A stretch of DNA of 64,000 nt, from positions 217,836 to 281,835 of the forward strand of contig JBAZWC010000002.1 of the NCBI GenBank assembly GCA_041660565.1, written 5' to 3'. The notes beneath the pieces were generated by a model that searched no databases, was not told where the DNA came from, and saw nothing but the letters and a program-made list of their open reading frames with translations. Below are positions 5,284 through 47,483 of this stretch, piece by piece (position 1 is the stretch's first letter; every line of letters starts with the position of its first letter). Both the position numbers and the translations under genes were made by a program. This DNA is from Patescibacteria group bacterium (GTDB lineage Bacteria; Patescibacteriota; UBA1384; CAJBMM01).

Positions 5284-5445
5284 CTGTCATTTCGACCCTG
5301 CGAGCATTGTCGAGCTGTTGGAGAAATCTTAATTAAGAATTTGAAATTTGAAGTTTGAAATTTGAAATTTTTAATTCTGGAAGGGATTCTATTCAGATTT
5401 CTCCGCCGCGGTCGTGTTGACACACTCCCCGAGTCGAAATGACAG
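5284..5445. repeat. family A element, copy 2 (contains the TTGAAAT heptamer tract 5336-5372)
   Basis: Termini are CTGTCATTTCGACCCTGCGAGCATTGTCGAGCTG at 5284 and GAGTCGAAATGACAGG at 5431-5446. The inner sequence matches copies 1 and 4. It ends 18 nt before the holA ATG. Confidence 0.6.
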
Positions 5446-6405: not shown

Positions 6406-6410
6406 GAAGA

Positions 6411-6490
6411 CGGTTAGGGGGCTTAGGGTGATTAGGGGTATTGGGGGAAACCGTTTGTTTTCCCAATCACCCAAATGTCCCTAATTCCCC
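6411..6490. repeat. TTAGGG-rich long palindrome, family C, copy 1 (probable bidirectional terminator holA/rpsT)
   Basis: GGTTAGGGGGCTTAGGGTGATTAGGGGTATTGGGGG ... CCCAATCACCCAAATGTCCCTAATTCCCC. It lies between convergent genes. Confidence 0.55.
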
Positions 6491-8225: not shown

Positions 8226-8248
8226 GGTGTTGCGGGGAAACCTAAAGC

Positions 8249-8348
8249 AAGAATTTGAAATTTGAAATTTGAAATTTTTAATGGTGGAAGGGATTCTTTC
8301 TTAGATTTCTCCACCCTCGAGACAATGCTCGAGGAGTCGAAATGACAG
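8249..8348. repeat. family A element, copy 4 (right half only)
   Basis: Heptamer tract, then GGAAGGGATTCTTTCTTAGATTTCTCCACCCTCGAGACAATGCTCGAGGAGTCGAAATGACAG. This is nearly the exact reverse complement of the left arm of copy 2. It lies upstream of the rpsO promoter. Confidence 0.55.
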
Positions 8349-8363
8349 TTTATGAGGCTTGTC

Positions 8364-10962: not shown

Positions 10963-10988
10963 ATAATTGAATTACGATGAGCGTCGTA

Positions 10989-11016
10989 GGGGCGGACTTG
11001 TAAGTCCGCCCTTTTG
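10989..11016 (+). terminator. rho-independent terminator of pnp (GGGGCGGAC-ttgtaa-GTCCGCCC followed by a TTTT run)
   Basis: A perfect 9-bp GC stem and T-run lie 27 nt after the pnp stop. A second hairpin (11028-11060) sits on the other side and serves the convergent minus-strand ORF. Confidence 0.6.
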
Positions 11017-11082
11017 GTATCTAAAAAAGAACCGCCCAGCGACTACAAGAGTCGGGGCGGTCGGTCGAGGTAATCCGCGCGG

Positions 11083-11451: not shown

Positions 11452-12426
11452 TTATTCAGTTTTGTCAACAGGAGGTTCTTCTACTTTTTTATCATGAAAA
11501 GCAGTGTGGATGTCTTTTAAGTGTTGATTTGTTACGTGCGTGTAAATTTGCGTGGTATTCAACGAGGCGTGCCCCAACATCGCTTGAACATCGCGAATGT
11601 TGGCGCCATTCATCAACAAATCGGTGGCAAACGAGTGGCGCAAAGTATGCGGAGTGACAGTTTTAACAATGCCAGCCGCTTTGGCATATCCCTGCACAAT
11701 TCGTTCAATTGATCGGTCAGATAAGCGTAAGCTGCGGTCAAGTTGTTGCTCGGCCTCTGGGATCGGATCTTTTAACCGAATAAACACGGCGTTATCATCG
11801 TCGGTGCGGCTAATTAAATACTGGCGCAGATACTCGGTAGCCACCGCCGACAAAAAAACAATCCGTTCTTTGCGTCCCTTGCCAATCACCGCAAATTCGC
11901 CGCGTTCCAAATTAACCTGATCTCGATTAAGTGATGCAATTTCGGACACTCGCAATCCGGTCGAGAATAAGGTATGCAGCAATGCCAAGTCACGCGCACC
12001 TTTAATCGTTTTGGGGTTAGGCATCTGCAACAATCGCACCAATTCTTCGTGATCCAAAAACTGAATCTGGCGCGAGTCGTTCGCCGGTAAATCAATCTTC
12101 TCTGCTGCCATCGCCACCACATTTTTGCGATTTAAATAGCGCAAAAGTGATCGCAGCGCAATTAAATGATAGTTTTGAGTTGATTTTGACAGCGGTTCGT
12201 CTTTTTGATTTTTGAGACGATTCAAATACTGGCGAAATCGCAGCACCAAATCATCGGTAATTTGATCAACCGAGGTAACGTTTTGCTCTTCTGCCCAAGC
12301 GTTAAATCGGTTTAAATAATGCGAATAGCTCTCGATCGTGTGTAATGATCGATTTTTTTCAAGCTCCAAATGCTGCATAAAAGCATCAGTTGCGTCGGAT
12401 AATGTCATAAAAAAAGTATAACACAA
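11452..12426 (-). CDS. xerC: tyrosine site-specific recombinase XerC/XerD family
   Basis: N-terminal SAM-like domain and C-terminal catalytic motifs (R..HTLRHSFATDLL..GANIRDVQAMLGHASLNTTQIYTHV). Confidence 0.85.
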   Translation of the reverse strand: MCYTFFMTLSDATDAFMQHLELEKNRSLHTIESYSHYLNRFNAWAEEQNVTSVDQITDDLVLRFRQYLNRLKNQKDEPLSKSTQNYHLIALRSLLRYLNRKNVVAMAAEKIDLPANDSRQIQFLDHEELVRLLQMPNPKTIKGARDLALLHTLFSTGLRVSEIASLNRDQVNLERGEFAVIGKGRKERIVFLSAVATEYLRQYLISRTDDDNAVFIRLKDPIPEAEQQLDRSLRLSDRSIERIVQGYAKAAGIVKTVTPHTLRHSFATDLLMNGANIRDVQAMLGHASLNTTQIYTHVTNQHLKDIHTAFHDKKVEEPPVDKTE

Positions 12427-12439
12427 AGAGACGAATTTT

Positions 12440-12610
12440 AAATTTTCAATTTTTAATTAGATGCTTAGCATCGAAATCACTCGCGGTACGCTCGAGATTA
12501 TCAAATGAAAGGTAGCCAATTTTAAATGACTAAATAAGGAGCCGCCTTTTTAAAATTTAATCATTCGGTACTTATTCATTTAAAATTTAGCCTTTAAAAT
12601 TTAAAATTTT
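12440..12610. repeat. intergenic repeat, family B, copy 1 (about 170 bp)
   Basis: Near-identical to 18738-18910 and, in its 3' 125 bp, to 25185-25312. It starts with (TTTTAAT)n, has an internal imperfect inverted repeat TTTAAATGACTAAATAAGGA...CTTATTCATTTAAA, and ends TTTAGCCTTTAAAATTTAAAATT. Confidence 0.7.
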
Positions 12611-12666
12611 ATTGGCTTGTGTTATCCTAAATGTAGGAGGGCCAGAAACTGTAATTTCTGGGTGAA

Positions 12667-15600
12667 ATGCAGGTAAAATTTAATCTCCGGCAATTTGGCG
12701 TATCTTGCGCTTTACTTATGATAGTTATAAGCGCTGGTTTGATGTCGGCTAGGCCGGCTTTTGCAGGAACCAGCTTGAATGTACAAGCATCTTTAAGCGC
12801 TGATAACACTGTAACCGTAAAATTTGACCAATATGACAACGCTCAAACGTATAACATTTCTAGAGTAAGTGGCACTACCGTTGCTCCAATTAGCTCGGTT
12901 ATCGGATCTGTTGCATTTAGTGGCGGGGTCACAACTACCTCCCAAACACTATCTGGCGAGCCGGTGGGAGTGTGGGAATATCAAGTGGAAGCGTTTAGTA
13001 GCTCAACTGCCAGTGGTACGGCACTTTCCTCGCAAAAGTCATCTGCAATTACTATTTCGGCTGCGGCTGCTTCTGGCGACACAACAACCCCTGTGGATGA
13101 GAACACGGTTATACTTAATCCAACTACTATGATGGCGGATTGTGTAGCGGCCAAGAAAACTGTTGACGATGACAAGAGCAAAGCCAGTAGTTCTATCTCT
13201 AGGAGAAGTTTATACGATGCCATCAGTGATAACAGCGTTAAGGCAGTTTTCAAATGGACACTCAGCTTAGTTAATATTCTGGTACTAATCTTTCTGCTTG
13301 TGGTATCATTCTCCAGTATTTTACGTGTGCAAATAGACACCTATGCGGTCAAAAAAGTGCTGCCCGCGCTAATTATGGGCATCGTTTTGGCCAACTTTAG
13401 CTGGCTAATTTGTCGATTCTTAATCGAGGTCTCTACATTAATAACCAACTCACTGTTGGCACAGTATGGTGGCGCTGGCGAGCTGTTTAGAAAAATTGCC
13501 GAGAGCTACGGACTAAGAGACACCTTATGCACCACCGCTACCACCGGCAACTTTGCCAGCGGGCTGTTAGGCGTATTTGTTGGCACGGTTTTGGTGGTAG
13601 TAGCCGCTATCTTAATGCTAACGCTGTATATGCTACTGGTGGCACGCATCTGGATTATCACCTTGCTAATGATTTTAGCGCCGTTAGCGTTCATCTCGCT
13701 CGGCTTCCCGCTAACATCAAGCTATTTCAAAAAATGGTGGACGATGTTCTTTAACTGGGTGTTTATGACGCCGGCCGCATTCCTTATCCTCATATTAGCG
13801 GAAAGGGTGTCGATTATTGGCAAAGAAGCAAACTTAACTCGATATATTTTGACCACGGCGTTGTTGTACTTTGCCATTCAAGTGCCGTTTAAGATGGGGG
13901 GCGATTGGATGCGCCAGTGGGGTGGCTACGTCTCGCAATTCAAGAAAAAAGCGTATGAAGGAACTGCTAAAGCTGTCGATCATTCAACCAAAGGTACGCG
14001 TGAAGATTTAGCTAATCGGGCTAGGTTGATGTATCGCAATAGTGCGGTTGGGCAAGATGTCGGCCGCCGCATTGCCGGTATCCAAATGCGGCGAGACTTG
14101 CGCAAAAAAGAGCTGGATAACTTAAAAGCAAGAGATCGCGGAAATGCCCGTGATGCCGCGGTTAAGTCAAGAAAGCTGACTGCCGCTCAAGCGGCTCTAC
14201 AGGACGCCCAGCAAGTTGGTCCAAAGCGTAAAGAAATTGAAGACAATATGTTGAAGGCTTTCGGTGGAAATACAGCAAAATTAGAACAATTTAAATCTCT
14301 TACTGAAGACGAAAAGTCGCGTCGAGTAAACATGGCCCGATCTACCGATACGTCTCTGACAAAGAAGGAGCGGGACAAAGCGGCAAGAGCAGTAGCTAGT
14401 TTGAGTACAAAAATTGCCAGCTCGAGATCTAGGTTTTCTGCAGCTGAACTAGCTGACATCGACAAGCAGATGCCAGGGAATCTTGACGCACACAAAGCTG
14501 ATCAAGACAGAATAAAAGCCGCACAAGACCGTTTAGCGGCAACACAGAACAAAGTGTACGGTCGATCGTACGAAGCTGCTGAGAGCGCTCTAGAGTTAAT
14601 GAAAGGCGAGGAAGGCTCGAAAAAAACAAACCAAGCCGCCTTTGACGAAACAGAGCTTGGCAGGCAGCATATGAACTGGATGACTGAGTATGCGTTCAAG
14701 ATGGCCAAAATGGATGCCAGAACTCAGATTGCGAAAGAGCAACAATCAGGCCGATGGCTTAAGGCTTTTGGGGTTGATCCAAATAAACCCACCGCCGAAT
14801 TAATTCAATTGGCTAAGGAAATCGGGGCAGATCCAAAGGAGCTTGGCAAGGCAATCAGCGACAACTTTACACTGCGATCAGATGCAGCGGCGCTTAAAGA
14901 TCGCAACGCAAAAACAGACGAAGATAATTTGGTTAAGGTGGCTCGAGAACAACTGACTCTGCATAATACTGTGTATAAGGTTAGAAATTTACGCGATCAA
15001 ATGACTCAAACGCAAGGTTCGCTAGACGCTGCAATTATTTCTGGTGATAAAATTCAAGAGAAGCTTTTGACTGAGATGCTTAAAGTATTAAAATCACAAC
15101 ATGACGCTGCCGTTGTAGATCACGACTCGACAATTGATAAATTACGTACCGACAGTAACAACAATTTTTCTGCGCTTGCACCGCATCTTCAGCAGGTAAT
15201 GACTGAGGGCGCTGGTGGGACAATCGCAGGCGCTAAAGAACTTGATAGTGGTACTGTGTTGAGATTGGTTGGTCGTGTAAAGGCGTGGGAAACGGGTAAA
15301 GCCGCAAATAGATTAGATGATACTGGAATATTGGCTCTGTCGCAAAAGTTACAAGCCGGTAGCCCCGAGGATGAAATTACGCAGAAGCAGGTTGAGGCGT
15401 ATCGTGCAGGAAATTTTGCCGCCATAGATGATGATATTTCTAAGCGCGCGGATATAGTTTCAAAAATAAATATTTGGACAGCGGCTGTAAGTAAGACCCT
15501 GGGCGGAACTACAAATCCTGATAGCGATATGGTTTCTGAGATGAGCCTTAACCAACTCATAACACCGGAGACAAGGCACTCAGTGGCGCTTCAAATAGCA

Positions 15601-15786
15601 CGTTCTGCAAAAGGCAGAGGATTCTTTAAAGATAATGGAATTGATGTGGAAACTGCATCACCTGATTGGTATACTACCCCAGCTGCAATGAATGTTATGA
15701 ACAAGGCACTGACCAATAATAAGAGTCGTAGATTAGTAATTGGTGCGCTTAAACAAGTATTTACCACCCAAGGGAAAGGTAACTAA
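12667..15786 (+). CDS. giant membrane protein with a signal peptide, a Ser/Thr-rich exodomain, a VirB6/TrbL-like polytopic core and a roughly 580-aa charged coiled-coil tail
   Basis: The signal peptide is MQVKFNLRQFGVSCALLMIVISAGLMSARPAFAG. At least six TM helices fall between about aa 200 and 450 (ILAPLAFISLGFP...). A long K/R/E/D/Q-rich heptad-like C-terminus follows. The gene is first in an operon with the next two ORFs (3-nt and 12-nt gaps). Confidence 0.4.
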   Translation: MQVKFNLRQFGVSCALLMIVISAGLMSARPAFAGTSLNVQASLSADNTVTVKFDQYDNAQTYNISRVSGTTVAPISSVIGSVAFSGGVTTTSQTLSGEPVGVWEYQVEAFSSSTASGTALSSQKSSAITISAAAASGDTTTPVDENTVILNPTTMMADCVAAKKTVDDDKSKASSSISRRSLYDAISDNSVKAVFKWTLSLVNILVLIFLLVVSFSSILRVQIDTYAVKKVLPALIMGIVLANFSWLICRFLIEVSTLITNSLLAQYGGAGELFRKIAESYGLRDTLCTTATTGNFASGLLGVFVGTVLVVVAAILMLTLYMLLVARIWIITLLMILAPLAFISLGFPLTSSYFKKWWTMFFNWVFMTPAAFLILILAERVSIIGKEANLTRYILTTALLYFAIQVPFKMGGDWMRQWGGYVSQFKKKAYEGTAKAVDHSTKGTREDLANRARLMYRNSAVGQDVGRRIAGIQMRRDLRKKELDNLKARDRGNARDAAVKSRKLTAAQAALQDAQQVGPKRKEIEDNMLKAFGGNTAKLEQFKSLTEDEKSRRVNMARSTDTSLTKKERDKAARAVASLSTKIASSRSRFSAAELADIDKQMPGNLDAHKADQDRIKAAQDRLAATQNKVYGRSYEAAESALELMKGEEGSKKTNQAAFDETELGRQHMNWMTEYAFKMAKMDARTQIAKEQQSGRWLKAFGVDPNKPTAELIQLAKEIGADPKELGKAISDNFTLRSDAAALKDRNAKTDEDNLVKVAREQLTLHNTVYKVRNLRDQMTQTQGSLDAAIISGDKIQEKLLTEMLKVLKSQHDAAVVDHDSTIDKLRTDSNNNFSALAPHLQQVMTEGAGGTIAGAKELDSGTVLRLVGRVKAWETGKAANRLDDTGILALSQKLQAGSPEDEITQKQVEAYRAGNFAAIDDDISKRADIVSKINIWTAAVSKTLGGTTNPDSDMVSEMSLNQLITPETRHSVALQIARSAKGRGFFKDNGIDVETASPDWYTTPAAMNVMNKALTNNKSRRLVIGALKQVFTTQGKGN

Positions 15787-15788
15787 TC

Positions 15789-16634
15789 ATGGCTGATGAA
15801 AATACCACCACAACTCAAAATCTTGATCCGGATGATTATCTACTGGAGCTAGAAACAGATCCGGAAAGCGACTGCTATAAGCTTATTCAAGATCAAAAAT
15901 ACGATCAAATAATGCCGGTGCTGGCACCGCTACCGTTAAAAGTGCAAATTAGGGTTTGCGAGCTGTTGCGCGAAACGTTTATCGATCAAATGCGCCACCT
16001 GATCAACTCTACTCCAGCCGATATCTACCAAAAAATTACCGCTACTATTACTAAGACGAGTGGTGATGATCAGGCAAAACTGGCTCAAATTCGCGACCAC
16101 TATTTTGTGACAATTAGTATGTTGATGACCTTAAAAGCGCCGAGCACACAAAAACGTTTGGTCAAAATTGCCGCTCAAAAATATAACGCAGACACCTCTT
16201 ATCGTCAGATTGACATCGAACAACAGTTGGCCGAAACCATGTTGCGCGCGTTGCCAAATATTGCCGAGACAGAAACAGATTACATTCAAAAAATCGCCGA
16301 ATTTACCGGGGTCGAAATGAGCGATCAGCCGTTTACCGATTTTGTTTCTAAAGCGGTTGATGCGCTTTATTACATCGCTTTGCTAGACGATTTATTGTTG
16401 CTGAAAATTGGAACGCAGACCGGTGATGATAAGATCGACTTGACGGTGTTGCAATCACAGGGAGTGATTGAGTTCGTACGTATGGTGATGATGTTGCGTG
16501 ATCCGTTTTTGCAGGCGTTGTATAGCGAATCTGAGCTGAATACATCAGTTGCTGCGATGCCCGAAATTTCACCCGAGACGGTGAAGCAGACTCCAGCGCC
16601 CGAAACTGAAACAACTAATTATGATATCGTGTAA
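15789..16634 (+). CDS. acidic cytoplasmic hypothetical protein (operon partner of the VirB6-like and PrgI-like genes)
   Basis: The start lies 3 nt after the upstream stop. There are no TM segments and no recognisable domain. Confidence 0.45.
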   Translation: MADENTTTTQNLDPDDYLLELETDPESDCYKLIQDQKYDQIMPVLAPLPLKVQIRVCELLRETFIDQMRHLINSTPADIYQKITATITKTSGDDQAKLAQIRDHYFVTISMLMTLKAPSTQKRLVKIAAQKYNADTSYRQIDIEQQLAETMLRALPNIAETETDYIQKIAEFTGVEMSDQPFTDFVSKAVDALYYIALLDDLLLLKIGTQTGDDKIDLTVLQSQGVIEFVRMVMMLRDPFLQALYSESELNTSVAAMPEISPETVKQTPAPETETTNYDIV

Positions 16635-16645
16635 TTAGAGGAAAT

Positions 16646-17131
16646 ATGCAATACAAAGTGCCGCAAAATATCGATAAAGAGGACGAAATCGTTGGCCCGC
16701 TAACGCTGGTTCAATTTAGCTATTTGGCCATCGCCTTTGCCATTGACTTTTTGGCATTCAAATCTTTGCCATTGGCACTAAGTTTGATCATCATTCTGCC
16801 TCTTTCGGTATTGGCTTTTGCTTTGGCATTTTTGAAGATTCAAGATCGGCCGATGCTGACATTTTTGATGGCGGTGCTGCATTTTTCTCGTGATGATAAA
16901 GCCAGAGTGTGGAGTAAAACATCTGACCGCCCCATTTTGCAGATCGACAAAACGGTAGCGCCGGTGGTAGCTACCGATGCTACACAGCACAAACAGTTCG
17001 ATTCTGCTAAAGCCGAAGCACTGGCCAATGTCATTGACGCACGCGGTCAAGCCCCAGCACCTGCCACGCCCGAGCCGACTAAGATGCCGTTTACAAATGT
17101 AGATCAAAACATCTTGAAAAAGAACGATTAG
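16646..17131 (+). CDS. PrgI-family (VirB3-like) small membrane protein
   Basis: 161 aa. The N-terminus MQYKVPQNIDKEDEIVGPLTLVQFSYLAIAFAIDFLAF, followed by two TM helices, is typical of PrgI-family proteins from Gram-positive/CPR T4SS loci. Confidence 0.5.
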   Translation: MQYKVPQNIDKEDEIVGPLTLVQFSYLAIAFAIDFLAFKSLPLALSLIIILPLSVLAFALAFLKIQDRPMLTFLMAVLHFSRDDKARVWSKTSDRPILQIDKTVAPVVATDATQHKQFDSAKAEALANVIDARGQAPAPATPEPTKMPFTNVDQNILKKND

Positions 17132-17244
17132 GGTCATTGGGGTAGTTAGGGCAGTTGAATCCCCCTAACCGTACCTACCGCCTGACAGTCTCTCAAACAA
17201 TCTTGGCAAAGGGTTTGGCGTTTGTTACGCTACCAAAGTAAAGG

Positions 17245-17823
17245 ATGTGGGCAAGCGTGTTTTCGACTATCGACAGCCAGATTGTGCTGGCATTAAATCA
17301 TTTAGCCCTCACAAACGACTTGACCAAATTCGTCGTCGTTTTTTGTTCGAACGGTTTAATTGCGATTGTGGTCTCGGTGGCTATTATGTATTTTTTATTT
17401 AATTTTCCGCTTTCAGCCGGTCAGCGAGTCCGCCCGATTATCGGATACGCCGCAGTCAGCATTTTGCTGGCGATGGCGGCGGGCTACATCATCGAGACAT
17501 TTATTGGTCGCGCCCGCCCATTTGCGTTGCTAAGTGATATTTCGGTTATTGGATCAATCCCCAAAAACACCTCTATGCCCAGTTTGCATACGTTGGCTGC
17601 ATTTGCCTTTGCCGGTGCGTTTATTTTTTGGCGACCAAAGGTAAATCATGCATGGTGGTTAATTGCCGCCGCCACTTTGGTGGGATTATCGCGTATTGCG
17701 GCCGGTTTGCATTACCCAACCGACGTGTTAGTTGGAGCGGCCATTGGCATCACCTGCGCTTATCTGGTAGTATACGAAGGATCCCCGGTGTTTAGATGGC
17801 TTTCTAGAGGACAGCAAAGATAA
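17245..17823 (+). CDS. PAP2-family phosphatase (PgpB-like, membrane)
   Basis: Polytopic membrane protein with PAP2 motifs (SMPSLHT...SRIAAGLHYPTDVLVGAAIG). Confidence 0.7.
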   Translation: MWASVFSTIDSQIVLALNHLALTNDLTKFVVVFCSNGLIAIVVSVAIMYFLFNFPLSAGQRVRPIIGYAAVSILLAMAAGYIIETFIGRARPFALLSDISVIGSIPKNTSMPSLHTLAAFAFAGAFIFWRPKVNHAWWLIAAATLVGLSRIAAGLHYPTDVLVGAAIGITCAYLVVYEGSPVFRWLSRGQQR

Positions 17824-17932
17824 TTTGAAATTCGAAATTTGAAATTTTTAAACATTTGGGAATTTTTTATTTTAAATTCGGATCTTGTTCATTTCAAATT
17901 GTAAATTTTATATTTCAAATTCTGGAGGTACC

Positions 17933-18724: not shown

Positions 18725-18737
18725 CCAAGGGTATAAT

Positions 18738-18910
18738 TTCAAATTTTTAATTTTTAATTAGATGTTTAGCATCGAAATCACTCGCGGAACGCTCGAGATT
18801 ATCAAATGAAAAGTTGCCAATTTCTAAATGACTAAATAAAGAACCATTTAAAATTTAATCATTCGGTACTTATTCATTTAAAATTTAGCCTTTAAAATTT
18901 AAAATTCAAA
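18738..18910. repeat. family B, copy 2
   Basis: More than 90% identical to copy 1 by eye. It lies between uppP and dedA. Confidence 0.7.
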
Positions 18911-19530: not shown

Positions 19531-19713
19531 TCTGATTGGATAAATTGGATTTTTTGGTGTGTGGAATTTTTTTGTCATATAGATTCCGGGTCGAGCCCGG
19601 AATGACAAACTCCAAAAACCAGTTGACGTGCTCTTATTTATATGACATACTGCGGCTAACACTCGGGGTACACTCAAGCGCCCCACTGACAACAGAATCC
19701 GGAGGGTGGAACG

Positions 19714-21469: not shown

Positions 21470-21547
21470 CCAATTAATCCAATTAGATTTTATTATATAG
21501 ATTCCAAAGTCGAGCCCGGAATGACAAAAAAATATAAGGAGCAGAAT

Positions 21548-22141
21548 ATGCAACATCCAAAAGAAGAGCGAACGGTCGTTTTAGTAAAGCCCGATGGGGT
21601 TATGCGCGGTTTGGTGGGCGAGGTTTTAACTCGTTTTGAAAAACGCGGTTTGAAGATTTTAGGTTTGAAAATGGTATATCCGTCTCGTGAACACGCTGCG
21701 GCACACTATTCGGGCTCCGAAGAGTGGTTGCGTGGGATGGGCAATAAGACGCTTGAGGCGTTTGCCAAATATGGCATAGACGTAACTGCAGAAATGGGCA
21801 CTGCCGACGCATTGGAAATTGGTAAAAAGGTGCAGCAATGGAACGTTGACTACTTGGCAATGGGTCCGGTAGTGGCAATCGTTCTGCAGGGTATGCACGC
21901 TATCACCACCGTGCGCAAAATTGTGGGAAGTACTTTGCCGGTGTTAGCCGATCCTGGTACCATCAGGGGCGATTTTTCGGTTGATTCAAATGTTGCCGGC
22001 AATTTTGATAAGCGCGCGATTCACAATATCGTTCACGCCTCTGGTGATCCATCCGAAGCCGGGCACGAAATTGCGCACTGGTTCAAAGAGGAAGAACTAA
22101 TTAAATATTCTCGCGCCGACGAACAGATAATGTTTGGATAA
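21548..22141 (+). CDS. ndk: nucleoside diphosphate kinase (with an internal insertion of about 30 aa)
   Basis: VVLVKPDGVMRGLVGEVLTRFEKRGLKI and the NIVHASGDPSEAGHEIAHWF active-site region. The ATG at 21548 has SD AAGGAG upstream. The ORF-track start at 21521 is over-extended. Confidence 0.9.
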   Translation: MQHPKEERTVVLVKPDGVMRGLVGEVLTRFEKRGLKILGLKMVYPSREHAAAHYSGSEEWLRGMGNKTLEAFAKYGIDVTAEMGTADALEIGKKVQQWNVDYLAMGPVVAIVLQGMHAITTVRKIVGSTLPVLADPGTIRGDFSVDSNVAGNFDKRAIHNIVHASGDPSEAGHEIAHWFKEEELIKYSRADEQIMFG

Positions 22142-23271: not shown

Positions 23272-23439
23272 CTGTCATCTCGACCCTGTGAGCGTTGTCG
23301 AACTGTTGGCTTCCTGCCCTCTTAGGGCGTAAGCCCGGAGGGAGAGATCCCGCCAGTAGCTAGATCAATACGGGATTTCTCCATCAAGCGGGCGGACATA
23401 TGAGTCCGCCCCTACACCAAGAGATTGTCGAAATGACAA
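23272..23439. repeat. family A element, copy 3 (GC-rich interior)
   Basis: Termini are CCTGTCATCTCGACCCTGTGAGCGTTGTCGAACTG and GTCGAAATGACAA. The interior retains GGAGAGATCCC...GGGATTTCTCC and carries a GGGCGGAC-atatga-GTCCGCCC hairpin. Confidence 0.55.
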
Positions 23440-25184: not shown

Positions 25185-25312
25185 AATTTTTAATTTTTAA
25201 TTTTTAATTTCAAATGAAAGGAAGCCAATTTTTAAATGACTAAATAAGGAACCATTTAAAATTTAATCATTCGGTACTTATTCATTTAAAATTTAGCCTT
25301 TAAAATTTATAA
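25185..25312. repeat. family B, copy 3 (lacks the roughly 45-bp GCATCGAAATCACTCGCGG...GAGATTATC module)
   Basis: It abuts the dnaE stop codon and is convergent with the bPH-membrane gene. Confidence 0.65.
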
Positions 25313-28300
25313 TTATCTAACCTCGGTCTGGTGTGGGCCAACTAATCGCGCAATTTGATCTAACAAGCTGAAGTCAATTTTTACTGTCAGCCTTGGTTTA
25401 ATTTCTTTTTGGTCCGGTAGATGCAAGATGAAGGCATTTACGCCGTTATGTAGTGACAAAACGTGTTTTAGCTCGGACAAAGTTTTGGTACTGGTGTCTT
25501 CGGGAATGGTGATATGCAAAATAGCGGATTCGGGAAACATCTGCACCGGTTTTTCACTCGCTCCGGTTGTGGGTGCTGCGGCGCGTCCGTTTTGGCTTTT
25601 GCCGTTACCGTTTTTATATGACGTAAGTGCGGGCAAATCTATACCATCCACTGACCGCGCCTCGGTGATATCCCACGCCGCGTTGACTAAAATTTTTAAG
25701 CTGCCATCTTTATCGTTCACCTTGCCATCTGCCACTATAATGCGGTCATTTTGCCATAAATCCTTGGTTTCGGCATATAAATTGGGGAAGATGATTAGCT
25801 CAATATTGGTAGTAGCGTCTTCCACTTTCACAAACGCCATTGCTTGGTTGGATTTGGTGATAATCGATTTGACACTGGTGATCATACCGATAATGCGCAC
25901 CGATTTATCTACCATATTTTGTTTAATTTCACCGATTTTAATGATGTCGTGCCCCGAAATTGAGTTCAAATCTGACATTGGGTGCTCTGAAAGGTAAATG
26001 CCAAGCAGGTCTTTTTCCCATTGCATAATTTGTTGTTTGGTGGCGGGAGCGGTTGGGGTTAAATTAAGCAAAACCATCTCTTCGTTTTCGTCTGAGCCAA
26101 ACAACCCAATTTGGCTGTGATGATCTTTGTGAATACCGGTGGCGTACTTTAGAATTGCTTCGATATTAACAAACAAGGTGTTTCGGTCTGAAAAACTATC
26201 CAAAGCGCCCGCTTGCGTCAAGCTCTCCAATGTTTTTCGGTTGATTACTTTTCCATCAGTCCTTTTGATAAAATCAGTCAAACTAGTAAACAAACCATTT
26301 TTTTTGCGCTCTTTGACGATCACCTCTGCCACGCCGTGCCCCACATTCTTAATTGCTCCTAGCCCAAACCGAATATTCTCGTTTTTATGTTGATCGTTCG
26401 GGACTACGCCAAAATCCGGAAAAGACTCGTTGATGTCCGGAGGCAGCACCTTAATGCCCATTCGATTGCACTCGTTTAGGGCGAACGATACTTTTTCAAT
26501 GTCACGGCTTTGCTCCGAGGTTAGCCATGCCGCCATAAACTGGCTGGGATAGTGCATTTTAAGATACGCGGTTTGGTACGCAATCATCCCGTAAGAGGTG
26601 GCGTGCGCTTTATTAAATCCGTAACGGGCGAACGGCTCTACGAAGTCGAATAGCTTTTCGGCCAAGCTTTTGGTGATGCCGTTTTGCACCCCTTTTTCAA
26701 TCCATTTATGCCGCTGTTCCAATAATAATTCTTTGATTTTTTTACCAATCGCTTTGCGCAGAACATCGGCTTCGCCGTATGAAAATCCGCACAAATCGCG
26801 AGCAATGCGCAAAATTTGTTCCTGATAAACGGCAATACCGTATGTTTCTTTTAGAATTGGCTCGAGCTTGGGATGAAGATAGGTGACTTTTTTGGTGCCA
26901 TGTTTGCCGGCAATATAATCTGGAATTAATTCGATTGGTCCGGGACGATATAGCGCCACCATCGCAATAATATCGTTGATGACGGTTGGTTTTAGCTCTT
27001 TTAAGTACCGTTTCATCCCATCTGACTCTAATTGGAACACCCCAGACGACTCGCCGCGAGAAAGCAGCTGGTACGTTTCTTTGTCATCAAGCGGTATTTC
27101 GGCGGTAATTATATCAACATCTCGAGTGGCTTTGATGATCTCCAGCGCCCGCTCAATGATGGACAGGTTGGCTAGACCCAAGAAGTCCATTTTAACCAAA
27201 CCAACTGCCTCTAACTCTTTCATGGCAAATTGAGTCACGATGCCAGACTGCTCTTTATCGCCGATACGTTGCACCGGTACATAGTTGGTGATGTCTTTGT
27301 CCGAGATAACTACGCCAGCGGCGTGCACCGAGGCGTGGCGAGCCACTCCTTCTACCTTGCCCGCCAGATCAATCAGCTTTTTAATTGCGGGCTCGTTGTT
27401 GTAGCGATATTTTAACTCAACGTTGGTTTCTAGCGCGATATCCAGTGTTGACCCGAGCGGGATCAGTTTAGAAACCGCATCTACTTCGCCATACGGCATG
27501 CCCAAAACTCGCCCCACGTCGCGGATGCTGTTTTTGGCTGCAATCGTACCAAAGGTAATAATCTGTGCCACCTTGTCGGCGCCGTATTTTTCGGTGACGT
27601 ATGCGATTAATTCGCCGCGTCTGGTATCGGCGATATCCAAGTCAACATCTGGCCAGTCAATACGTTCTTGGTTTAGAAATCGTTCAAAGATTAGACCGTA
27701 CTTTAACGGATCGATGTCGGTAATGTTGATTAAATACGAGACTAATGAGCCAGCGGCTGATCCACGAGTGTTGGTAAAAATGCCCATTTCCTTGGCTTTG
27801 TTGTTGTAGTCTGCCACCATCAGCATATAGCTGGCAAAGCCGGTTTTGCCGATGACATCAAGCTCATATTCAAGTCGGGTTTTGTACTCTTCATCTAAAT
27901 TGGACGGGTATTCCGAGCGTTCGCTGGGTTGATTAGTCTTGACCACTTTAGCCCATAATCCGGCAATACATCTCTCGCGCAGATAATCATCCGGTTTTGC
28001 CCCACCCGGTATTGGAAACGCCGGAAAGATATATTGACCGGTCTTGATTTCGAATTGGCACATATCGGCAATTTTGCGGGTGTTTGATATTGCCTCTGGC
28101 AAATCTGCAAAATTGGCGGACATTTCATCACTCGTTAGCATTGATATATCAATGTAGCGACCATCTTGTTTCATTGACATTCGATTTTGATCTGCCATAA
28201 ACTTGCCGGTTTGAATACACAGCAATGCATCTTGCGCCTCGGCATCATCATGCTCTAAATAATGGACATCATTTGTGGCCACTAGCCCGAGCTGGTGTTT

Positions 28301-28892: not shown

Positions 28893-28985
28893 AGGTTTCT
28901 TTCGTTCGGGGGATTAGGGACATTAGGGAAGTTGGGGATTTTGGGAGTGCCTTTGGCTCCCCCAATGCCCCTAATCACCCCAATC
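28893..28985. repeat. family C, copy 3 (between divergent dnaE and the methyltransferase gene)
   Basis: GGGGGATTAGGGACATTAGGGAAGTTGGGGATTTTGGGAG...CTCCCCCAATGCCCCTAATCACCCCAATCTCCCTAAT. Confidence 0.55.
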
Positions 28986-30117: not shown

Positions 30118-30228
30118 GCAAAATTCTAAATTCCAAGTTCCAAATTCTAAATAAATTCTAAATAAAAAATTCAAATAGTTTAGAATTTAGTGCTTAGTGC
30201 TTAGAATTTACGACTGTAAGGAGTATCT

Positions 30229-34967: not shown

Positions 34968-35100
34968 TTCCTAGATTATACCACAGATTTGTTAATAATC
35001 CGTAGGGGCGGACCTATGTGTCCGCCCGCATAGTATTGTTTATTGTAGAGTTTTGTGGTATAACAACACTGCAAGCACTCTACGTTTCAGGAGACAGTCC

Positions 35101-35784: not shown

Positions 35785-35804
35785 GCGTGTGGGCGCCGGC
35801 ACAA

Positions 35805-35839
35805 AACGGCTCGGATGCAGTGCATTCCGAGCCGTTTTT
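35805..35839 (+). terminator. rho-independent terminator of paralog A (identical copy at 36618-36653 after paralog B)
   Basis: AACGGCTCGGATGCAGTGCATTCCGAGCCGTT followed by TTTT. A 32-45 bp identical segment is duplicated after both paralogs. Confidence 0.65.
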
Positions 35840-35958
35840 CATTTAGTTACGTGAAATTTCTTCATTATCATATTCGATTTAGGTGTTACGTATTGAATAT
35901 TATTTATTTTTATGGTATAAAATAGTTTGCATGCACACTACGCTTCGGGAGGCTGTCC

Positions 35959-36594: not shown

Positions 36595-36732
36595 GGCGTC
36601 ACGTGGACGCCGACACAAAACGGCTCGGATGCAGTGCATTCCGAGCCGTTATTCATTTTATAGTCGAATTGGCTTGCCATTCCGAAGCCTTCTTGACCTT
36701 CCGTAGCTTTGGCGAAGGAGGTGGCGAAGGAT

Positions 36733-39211: not shown

Positions 39212-39277
39212 ATCATCAATTATAAAATGCCAATTGAGCCAATTAATCCAATTTGACCAATTGAGAATGAGGAAATT

Positions 39278-47370: not shown

Positions 47371-47375
47371 GAAGC

Positions 47376-47470
47376 ACCAAAAACGGTTAGGGAGATTAGG
47401 GACTTTAGGGATTTTGGGAGACCATCGGTTATCCCAACCGCCCTAATCACCCTAAAACCCCTAACCGTCT
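47376..47470. repeat. family C, copy 4 (between convergent clpC-like and response regulator genes)
   Basis: CGGTTAGGGAGATTAGGGACTTTAGGGATTTTGGGAG ... TCCCAACCGCCCTAATCACCCTAAAACCCCTAACCG. Confidence 0.55.
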
Positions 47471-47483
47471 TTAGAATTTTGGC

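Follow-up and report, generated by a model that had tools for sequence, protein, structure and literature searches.

A candidate MITE-like repeat in intergenic spacers of a Patescibacteria genome

Introduction

The Correia elements (CREE/nemis) of Neisseria occur in full-length and internally deleted size classes. They are short, non-coding and intergenic, carry terminal inverted repeats (TIRs) and fold over their whole length into a long hairpin; they often adjoin genes, and their ends can create sigma-70-like promoters (PMC10969869, PMC2649163). Co-transcribed copies form RNA hairpins (PMC10969869, PMC2649163). More generally, prokaryotic MITEs are below 500 bp, AT-rich and intergenic, have TIRs of 4–30 bp and form stem-loops (PMC10969869). 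Patescibacteria are not mentioned in a 2024 review of prokaryotic MITEs (0 occurrences; PMC10969869), and we found nothing in the literature on MITE-type repeats in this group.

Here we describe a repeat, family B, which occurs three times in the window, by which we mean the whole 64-kb stretch of DNA that was analysed. With moderate confidence we regard it as a lineage-restricted, non-coding dispersed repeat of the MITE/Correia kind in Patescibacteria (CPR). It is new as a family, so far confined to one CPR MAG, and of a well-known kind; it opens no new mechanism. The genomes of Patescibacteria are tiny and tightly packed, and family B makes up nearly all of three gaps, which suggests that reduced genomes too take up selfish or co-opted spacer elements.

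Family B resembles Correia elements in its small size, lack of coding capacity, intergenic position close to genes, hairpin and long and short forms, and possibly also in its inverted and promoter-like ends; co-transcribed copies would likewise form RNA hairpins. The two belong to different phyla and have no sequence similarity. The Correia TIR is complex, about 26 bp long and accompanied by a TA duplication, whereas that of family B has 13 nt, consists of A and T only and is inseparable from the AATT found at the ends of the copies. Correia elements exceed 100 copies per genome, against 3 copies of family B in the 64-kb window; IHF binding and RNase III cleavage have been shown for Correia elements. 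Other prokaryotic MITEs (Coxiella QMITE1/2, ERIC, RUP and Acinetobacter MITEAba12) resemble family B in size, AT-richness, intergenic preference, stem-loop potential and promoter-like sequences (PMC10969869). Family B differs from these in that no cognate IS was found in the window and the copies have no clear direct repeats; its mobility is putative. With the REP/BIME sequences of Enterobacteria it has in common extragenic palindromes and variably combined modules, and possibly an orientation bias; REPs are 20–40-nt GC-rich hairpins, often clustered head-to-head, whereas family B is an AT-rich unit of 130–175 nt. A REP/BIME with RAYT was rejected as its identity. The core hairpin (75–78 nt, 21–26% G+C) is not a 20–40-nt GC-rich palindrome with a conserved 5′ tetranucleotide, and a Pfam scan of 40 window ORFs revealed neither a Y1_Tnp match nor a RAYT gene.

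Results and discussion

The family B repeat

The three copies are located as follows.

12434–12608, + strand: copy c1, long form, 175 nt, in the divergent gap between xerC (−) and a VirB6/TrbL-like gene (+)
18735–18906, + strand: copy c2, long form, 172 nt, in the tandem gap between uppP/BacA (+) and dedA/VTT (+)
25185–25314, + strand: copy c3, short form, 130 nt, without the 42-nt module, in the convergent gap between a bPH-like gene (+) and dnaE (−)

The initial annotation had reported three intergenic copies in the same orientation with more than 90% identity. All of this stands, with the ends refined and the pairwise identities at 92–95% (blastn-short). Copies c1 and c2 are 92.0% identical over 176 nt, c1 and c3 91.7% over 109 nt and 92.9% over 28 nt, and c2 and c3 94.3% over 105 nt (blastn-short); in the 129 shared columns that have no gaps, every pair reaches about 95% identity. 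A core 74-mer matches c2 and c3 at one mismatch or fewer, and shuffles (n = 100) gave 0 matches. A repeat search, nhmmer and a covariance model detected no fourth copy in the 64-kb window. The copies lie within 13 kb, at similar spacings of about 6.3 kb (c1 to c2) and 6.4 kb (c2 to c3). The right boundary of the element is sharp in 3/3 copies; the left is fuzzy, with c1 and c3 agreeing at 8/11 bases further left.

Each copy begins with about 25 nt of 7-nt repeats (AATTTTT, AATTTTA and AATTTTC types). In the long form a 42-nt module follows, and then in both forms TCAAATGAAAGG, a hairpin of 75–78 nt and the tail TTTAAAATTTAAAATT. The basic unit is about 130 nt; the long form is this unit plus the module.

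12434–12446 and 12596–12608: left arm AATTTTAAATTTT and right arm AAAATTTAAAATT of a 13-nt terminal inverted repeat in c1, 13/13 reverse-complement match
12459–12500, + strand: optional 42-nt module of c1, AGATGCTTAGCATCGAAATCACTCGCGGTACGCTCGAGATTA, with two small hairpins; absent from c3
18760–18801, + strand: 42-nt module of c2, differing from that of c1 at 2/42 positions
12515–12592: core imperfect hairpin of c1, 78 nt, −16.3 kcal/mol on the + strand and −16.9 kcal/mol on the − strand
18816–18890: core imperfect hairpin of c2, 75 nt, −8.2 kcal/mol on the + strand and −21.1 kcal/mol on the − strand
25224–25298: core imperfect hairpin of c3, 75 nt, −12.8 kcal/mol on the + strand and −20.9 kcal/mol on the − strand
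12549–12603 (c1), 18847–18901 (c2) and 25255–25309 (c3), + strand: invariant right half with three direct TTTAAAATTTA 11-mers in each copy
12579–12607, 18877–18905 and 25285–25313, + strand: outward weak sigma-70-like site, TTTAAA-17-TAAAAT (second hexamer TATAAT in c3), a consensus match only

The core hairpin corresponds to the inverted repeat quoted in the initial annotation, which is real and folds imperfectly in each copy. The module hairpins are GATGC-TTA-GCATC and a CTCG...CGAG stem. The third copy had been described as lacking a module of about 45 bp; the absence is confirmed, the size is not, the module being 42 nt. It had also been said to share TCGAAAT with family A, another repeat of the window. 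The match, of 7–10 nt, is not significant (local alignment against shuffles, p 0.06–0.1), and homology of the module to family A was rejected. An SD-like AAGGAG, attributed to every copy, is found in c1 only, with AAAGAA in c2 and AAGGAA in c3, and no conserved ORF follows it. Stops occur throughout every frame of family B. A coding role was rejected: the mini-ORFs are unconserved, and the sole conserved ORF, 9 codons on the − strand (MNKYRMIKF), has a poorly spaced SD.

A length of 130–175 nt, the lack of coding capacity, a G+C content of about 20–26% (about 45% for the window and genome), a 13-nt TIR and a hairpin make up the typical anatomy of a MITE and argue for this reading. The difference of one internal block between long and short forms points to the MITE/Correia-like kind; c3 would be an internally deleted derivative. 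The 13-nt TIR is A/T only and of low complexity; c2 and c3 have degenerate versions of it, and motifs resembling it are also present within the element. MITE finders discard low-complexity TIRs such as pure A/T (PMC10969869). The initial annotation had proposed a search for TSDs. AATT is present at both ends of every copy and is indistinguishable from the TIR; a longer flank match (7 nt, AATTTTA) exists at c1 only. No transposase domain was found in the 40 window ORFs scanned against Pfam, and the other large window ORFs match non-transposase, Pfam-labelled genes in the syntenic relatives and in L013, a contig of the same organism. The earlier suggestion of a MITE is partly supported: the anatomy, the filling of the gaps and the contexts of the copies speak for it, and the low-complexity TIR, the inseparable AATT and the lack of a transposase among the ORFs scanned speak against it.

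Spacers with and without the element

Copy c1 occupies 175 of the 240 nt between xerC and its right neighbour, a weak TrbL/VirB6-like membrane protein gene (+). Copy c2 starts 10 nt past the uppP stop and ends 15 nt ahead of the dedA ATG. Copy c3 starts 6 nt past the TAG of the upstream gene, named bPH-like from its orthologue in relatives (bPH_2-like), and it ends 2 nt inside the dnaE stop codon (25313–25315). Removal of the element would leave spacers of 65 nt (c1), 25 nt (c2) and 6 nt (c3). The element thus nearly fills each gap, and the gaps are compact in relatives, which argues for a MITE-like insertion. The variety of contexts, one divergent, one tandem and one convergent, speaks against a single dedicated role in cis-regulation. 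As we envisage it, the copies would have entered very short intergenic spacers through the action of a transposase in trans, or possibly through recombination, with AATT as the putative target duplication, and would have persisted where stop codons and core promoters stayed intact.

When c2 and one AATT are removed, the sequence before dedA reads TTGTCG-18-TATAAT, TCAAATC, GGGG, TCAAA and ATG (reconstructed site GGGTATAATTCAAATCGGGG). It is suggestive that this may restore a textbook promoter/SD/start arrangement. Removing c3 likewise gives TAG-GAAACGAA-TTA, with two stop codons 8 nt apart (reconstructed site TAGGAAACGAATTATCTAACC), a suggestive candidate for the pre-insertion site. An inverted pair of TGTGTTAT(A/C)C boxes has c1 at its centre. 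The box on the xerC side is an extended −10 (TGnTATACT) 6 nt ahead of the ATG at 12408 (window 12406–12429), and the mirrored TGTGTTATCC box (12618–12629) lies across c1, facing the VirB6-like gene. The TATACT-N6-ATG arrangement at xerC is also seen in L007 (about 21985–22010). An extended −10 only 6 nt before the ATG suggests that the xerC mRNA may be leaderless.

We note that c1 also marks the left edge of a three-gene T4SS-like block (12667–17131) between xerC and the PAP2 gene, with a TTAGGG hairpin at the right edge. The products are the 1039-aa weak TrbL/VirB6-like protein, a 281-aa protein and a 161-aa PrgI/TcpE-like protein. The block is absent at the same place in L007, L009 and L010. 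An oriT for these T4SS-like genes was considered and rejected, as were a retron ncRNA and a replication origin, in each case for absence of the defining features; the GC skew is monotonic. An integron attC or Xer (dif-like 28-nt) site was also rejected. The adjoining recombinase has only ordinary Phage_integrase and SAM-like domains and is found at the same place in relatives without the element, and the roughly 6.3 kb between copies consist of syntenic housekeeping genes, not cassettes.

The window DnaE is 100% identical to MFA6082506.1, a protein of a Patescibacteria group bacterium MAG encoded on a 374-kb contig; the next best DnaE proteins are 63–70% identical. The relatives compared, contigs L007, L009 and L010, have DnaE proteins 65–70% identical to that of the window and are too distant to provide true empty sites. 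They keep the gene order dnaE, (bPH), GT4, NDK, M16 peptidase, DedA, (UppP), PAP2, xerC, PNPase. Family B, including its hairpin and 11-mers, is absent from all three syntenic relatives (nhmmer, covariance model). L007 and L009 have an overlap of about 90 nt between dnaE and the bPH gene, and in L010 uppP and dedA are separated by 2 nt. The C-terminal tails of the window DnaE and bPH-like proteins are about 10–18 residues shorter than in L007 and L009. Such elements can alter promoters and the ends of genes; in this case the tails of dnaE and its neighbour are shorter, and the overlap between the two is gone.

In L007, the closest relative, a 143-nt AT-rich uppP-dedA spacer occupies the c2 site. 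The covariance model gives it an E of about 0.02–0.07, yet it is no closer to c2 than unrelated AT-rich spacers are, in either orientation (Smith–Waterman against shuffles), and homology was rejected. The two have in common only a generic AAATTT-type motif. A generic AAATTTNAAATTT motif is present in several spacers of the window and of L007 and absent from L009 and L010; one match of this type between the window and L007 covers 17/18 bases just upstream of dedA.

The sharing of this motif among spacers would fit a history without mobility, in which existing AT-rich spacers underwent local duplication or gene conversion, or in which the copies are decaying descendants of one ancestral spacer. 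So would the confinement of three copies to 13 kb, in one orientation and at similar spacing, and the mosaic features also suggest exchange, the module being common to c1 and c2, a 4-nt indel state to c2 and c3 and the left flank to c1 and c3. We nevertheless consider such a history unlikely. Between the copies lie unrelated housekeeping genes, single-copy and conserved in order, with no segmental duplication visible, the hairpin and 11-mers are missing from the spacers of all relatives, and the right boundary is uniformly sharp. A MITE-like insertion remains our preferred explanation.

A different spacer hairpin is seen in both genomes. Positions 30118–30228 of the window and 8721–8831 of L007 are the orthologous spacer between a UPF0020 methyltransferase gene and rpmA (L27), and both hold an AT-rich hairpin of AAATTCTAAAT-type repeats. 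Some AT-rich spacer hairpins thus hold their position at 70% DnaE identity.

Searches of public collections gave no further copy of family B. The 24-mer TCATTCGGTACTTATTCATTTAAA has 0 exact matches in GTDB representative genomes and JGI metagenome contigs, and a 21-mer of the hairpin 3′ arm and a 19-mer of the module have 0 exact matches in IMG/VR. The 26 JGI metagenome matches to the module 19-mer were dismissed as chance, for they lie in GC-rich DNA (54–67% G+C) with flanks unlike the element. Phage and plasmid collections contained no family B match (blastn, distant setting), and a UppP-based search of GTDB genome contigs yielded nothing but distant genes of actinobacteria. The organism itself is represented by three Logan contigs, which lie almost wholly within the window and reach about 640 nt beyond it. 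One of them, L011 (SRR18595301, 4924 nt, carrying dnaE), stops 31 nt into c3, as is expected of a k = 31 assembler at a repeat; its other end stops inside the AT-rich repeat at 30118–30228. The break in this independent assembly supports the repeat nature of family B. Spacer repeats including family B fragment short-read assemblies of this organism, and family B could serve as a strain marker.

Possible regulatory and RNA functions

The conservation of family B is uneven. Only 1 of 60 columns varies in the right half, against 9 of 69 in the left (Fisher p = 0.02; 10 variable columns in total), and the longest stretch without variation spans 55 columns (permutation p = 0.03). The earlier view that so high an identity points to recent mobility or selection is reasonable. 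The TTTAAAATTTA 11-mers of the right half start at 12549, 12579 and 12593 in c1, at spacings of 30 and 14 nt; the 11-mer has 9 occurrences in the window, all in family B.

These observations are consistent with the idea that the element, chiefly its invariant right half, has been co-opted and is kept by selection as a portable promoter or an array of protein-binding sites. The three TTTAAAATTTA sites would be the targets of a regulator or nucleoid protein, and TTTAAA-17-TAAAAT would drive the right-hand gene (the VirB6-like gene, dedA). The right end would then provide the downstream gene with a weak outward −35/−10-like site, and read-through transcripts would carry the long hairpin. The genes immediately downstream of c1 and c2 are on the + strand, and their start codons follow the promoter-like site by 60 and 17 nt. 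Sigma-70-like promoters are also known from MITEs, Correia elements among them (PMC10969869). Against this, c3 is directed into the 3′ end of dnaE, where there is no gene for it to drive. Neither a TTGACA-like −35 nor a TG extension is present at the site, which is much weaker than the clear promoters of the genome, which include TTGACC-17-GATATAAC around 8380 and TGnTATACT at xerC. AT-rich DNA also gives many chance promoter matches (44 found against 23.6 expected), and the invariance rests on 10 variable columns only. We judge co-option to be rather unlikely. Were it to hold, which we think a fairly slim prospect, regulation would be a co-opted property of an inserted element and not an alternative origin for it.

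A bolder version of this idea takes the right half, in which three TTTAAAATTTA sites are phased and a TAAAAT box faces outward, as a selected portable promoter/operator cassette or − strand RNA hairpin spread by the CPR lineage, and this we find quite doubtful. If true, such a selected portable unit would be the first functional mobile regulatory repeat to be described from Patescibacteria, and it would belong to a broader AT-rich periodic spacer system, specific to the lineage and common to the nearest relative.

Family B might instead encode or act as a − strand RNA, either a small RNA or a 3′-UTR stabiliser or processing hairpin, with its fold under selection; we consider this improbable. 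In c2 and c3, G–U pairs make the core hairpin more stable on the − strand by 8–13 kcal/mol; in c1 neither strand has the advantage. The consensus structure reaches −18.8 kcal/mol on the − strand and −12.3 kcal/mol on the + strand, and the z-score of the whole c3 copy is −4.0 and −0.6, respectively. In the consensus fold one c2-specific stem transition stays paired on the − strand (U–A to U–G). The − strand of c3 is the sense strand of dnaE, right after the stop codon; c2 has neither a − strand gene nor a conserved − strand promoter. In the module hairpin, c2 has GATGT in place of GATGC, which leaves a wobble pair on the + strand and breaks the pair on the − strand. Wobble-compatible changes thus favour opposite strands in the two hairpins, and the strand signal is inconsistent.

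The suggestion of a small RNA gene in the initial annotation gains no positive support from other sources either. At the gathering threshold Rfam detects only two tRNAs in the window, and at E up to 10 it gives chance matches only (10–21 bits against cut-offs of 43–140 bits). No conserved pair of promoter and U-tract terminator is present on either strand of family B. Covariance analysis, which had been proposed across genomes, found compensatory double changes among the window copies in 0/29 pairs on the − strand and 0/26 on the + strand, a comparison with almost no power given three copies that are 95% identical. The hairpin has no canonical U-tract, and ordinary GC-rich intrinsic terminators are found elsewhere in the genome. 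A canonical intrinsic terminator was likewise rejected as the identity of the element; the stem is AU-rich, no clean U-tract follows it and c1 has no gene to terminate. We return to the dispersed MITE-like repeat as the preferred description of family B.

Other repeats of the window

Family A is a clearer MITE candidate than family B. Its complete element (5284–5445) has 162 nt, perfect 13-nt inverted ends CTGTCATTTCGAC...GTCGAAATGACAG, an (AAATTTG)n loop and a folding energy of −59.7 kcal/mol. Partial copies lie at 8234–8350 (right half only) and 17804–17867, and related ends near 23272–23300. These family A and hairpin repeats are intergenic and resemble family B in having AAATTT(G/T)-type 7-nt repeats beside small GC-containing hairpins. 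Outside low-complexity AT repeats the similarity between the families is not significant (nhmmer E = 0.4), and the family A TIR is the 13-nt sequence given above. The presence in the window of other hairpin repeats with clean TIRs, such as that at 5284–5445, suggests that the genome accumulates such elements.

Intergenic 9-nt-periodic TTAGGGNNN arrays were observed at 6406–6480, 17132–17170, 28905–28947 and 47371–47483. They usually have an inverted CCCTAANNN partner and form long hairpins, that of 47371–47483 at about −50 to −54 kcal/mol. One TTAGGGNNN array immediately precedes the true dnaE start and is read through by the longest dnaE ORF. Short TGTCATNNN...GGAATGACA hairpins (TTGTCATATAGATTCCGGGTCGAGCCCGGAATGACAA) are found at 19570–19610 and 21490–21520, and a similar CTGTCATTCCCGTGAAAACGGGAATC element adjoins xerC in L007 (21930–21990); this looks like another repeat family common to the lineage.

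A 56-nt repeat with a GC-rich terminator hairpin, AAAACGGCTCGGATGCAGTGCATTCCGAGCCGTTTT, is present at 35789–35844 and 36603–36658. The copies are 95% identical and 814 nt apart, and flank a 211-aa ORF without a Pfam match. Two CGTAGGGGCGGAC...GTCCGCCC hairpins in gaps (10985–11020 and 35001–35036) are 78% identical and are probably terminators of a common type. Upstream of an NAD-dependent epimerase gene, a further 9-nt-periodic CCAATTNNN array (CCAATTGAGCCAATTAATCCAATTTGACCAATTGAG) occupies 39230–39270, and a shorter CCAATTAATCCAATTAG is found at 21470–21486.
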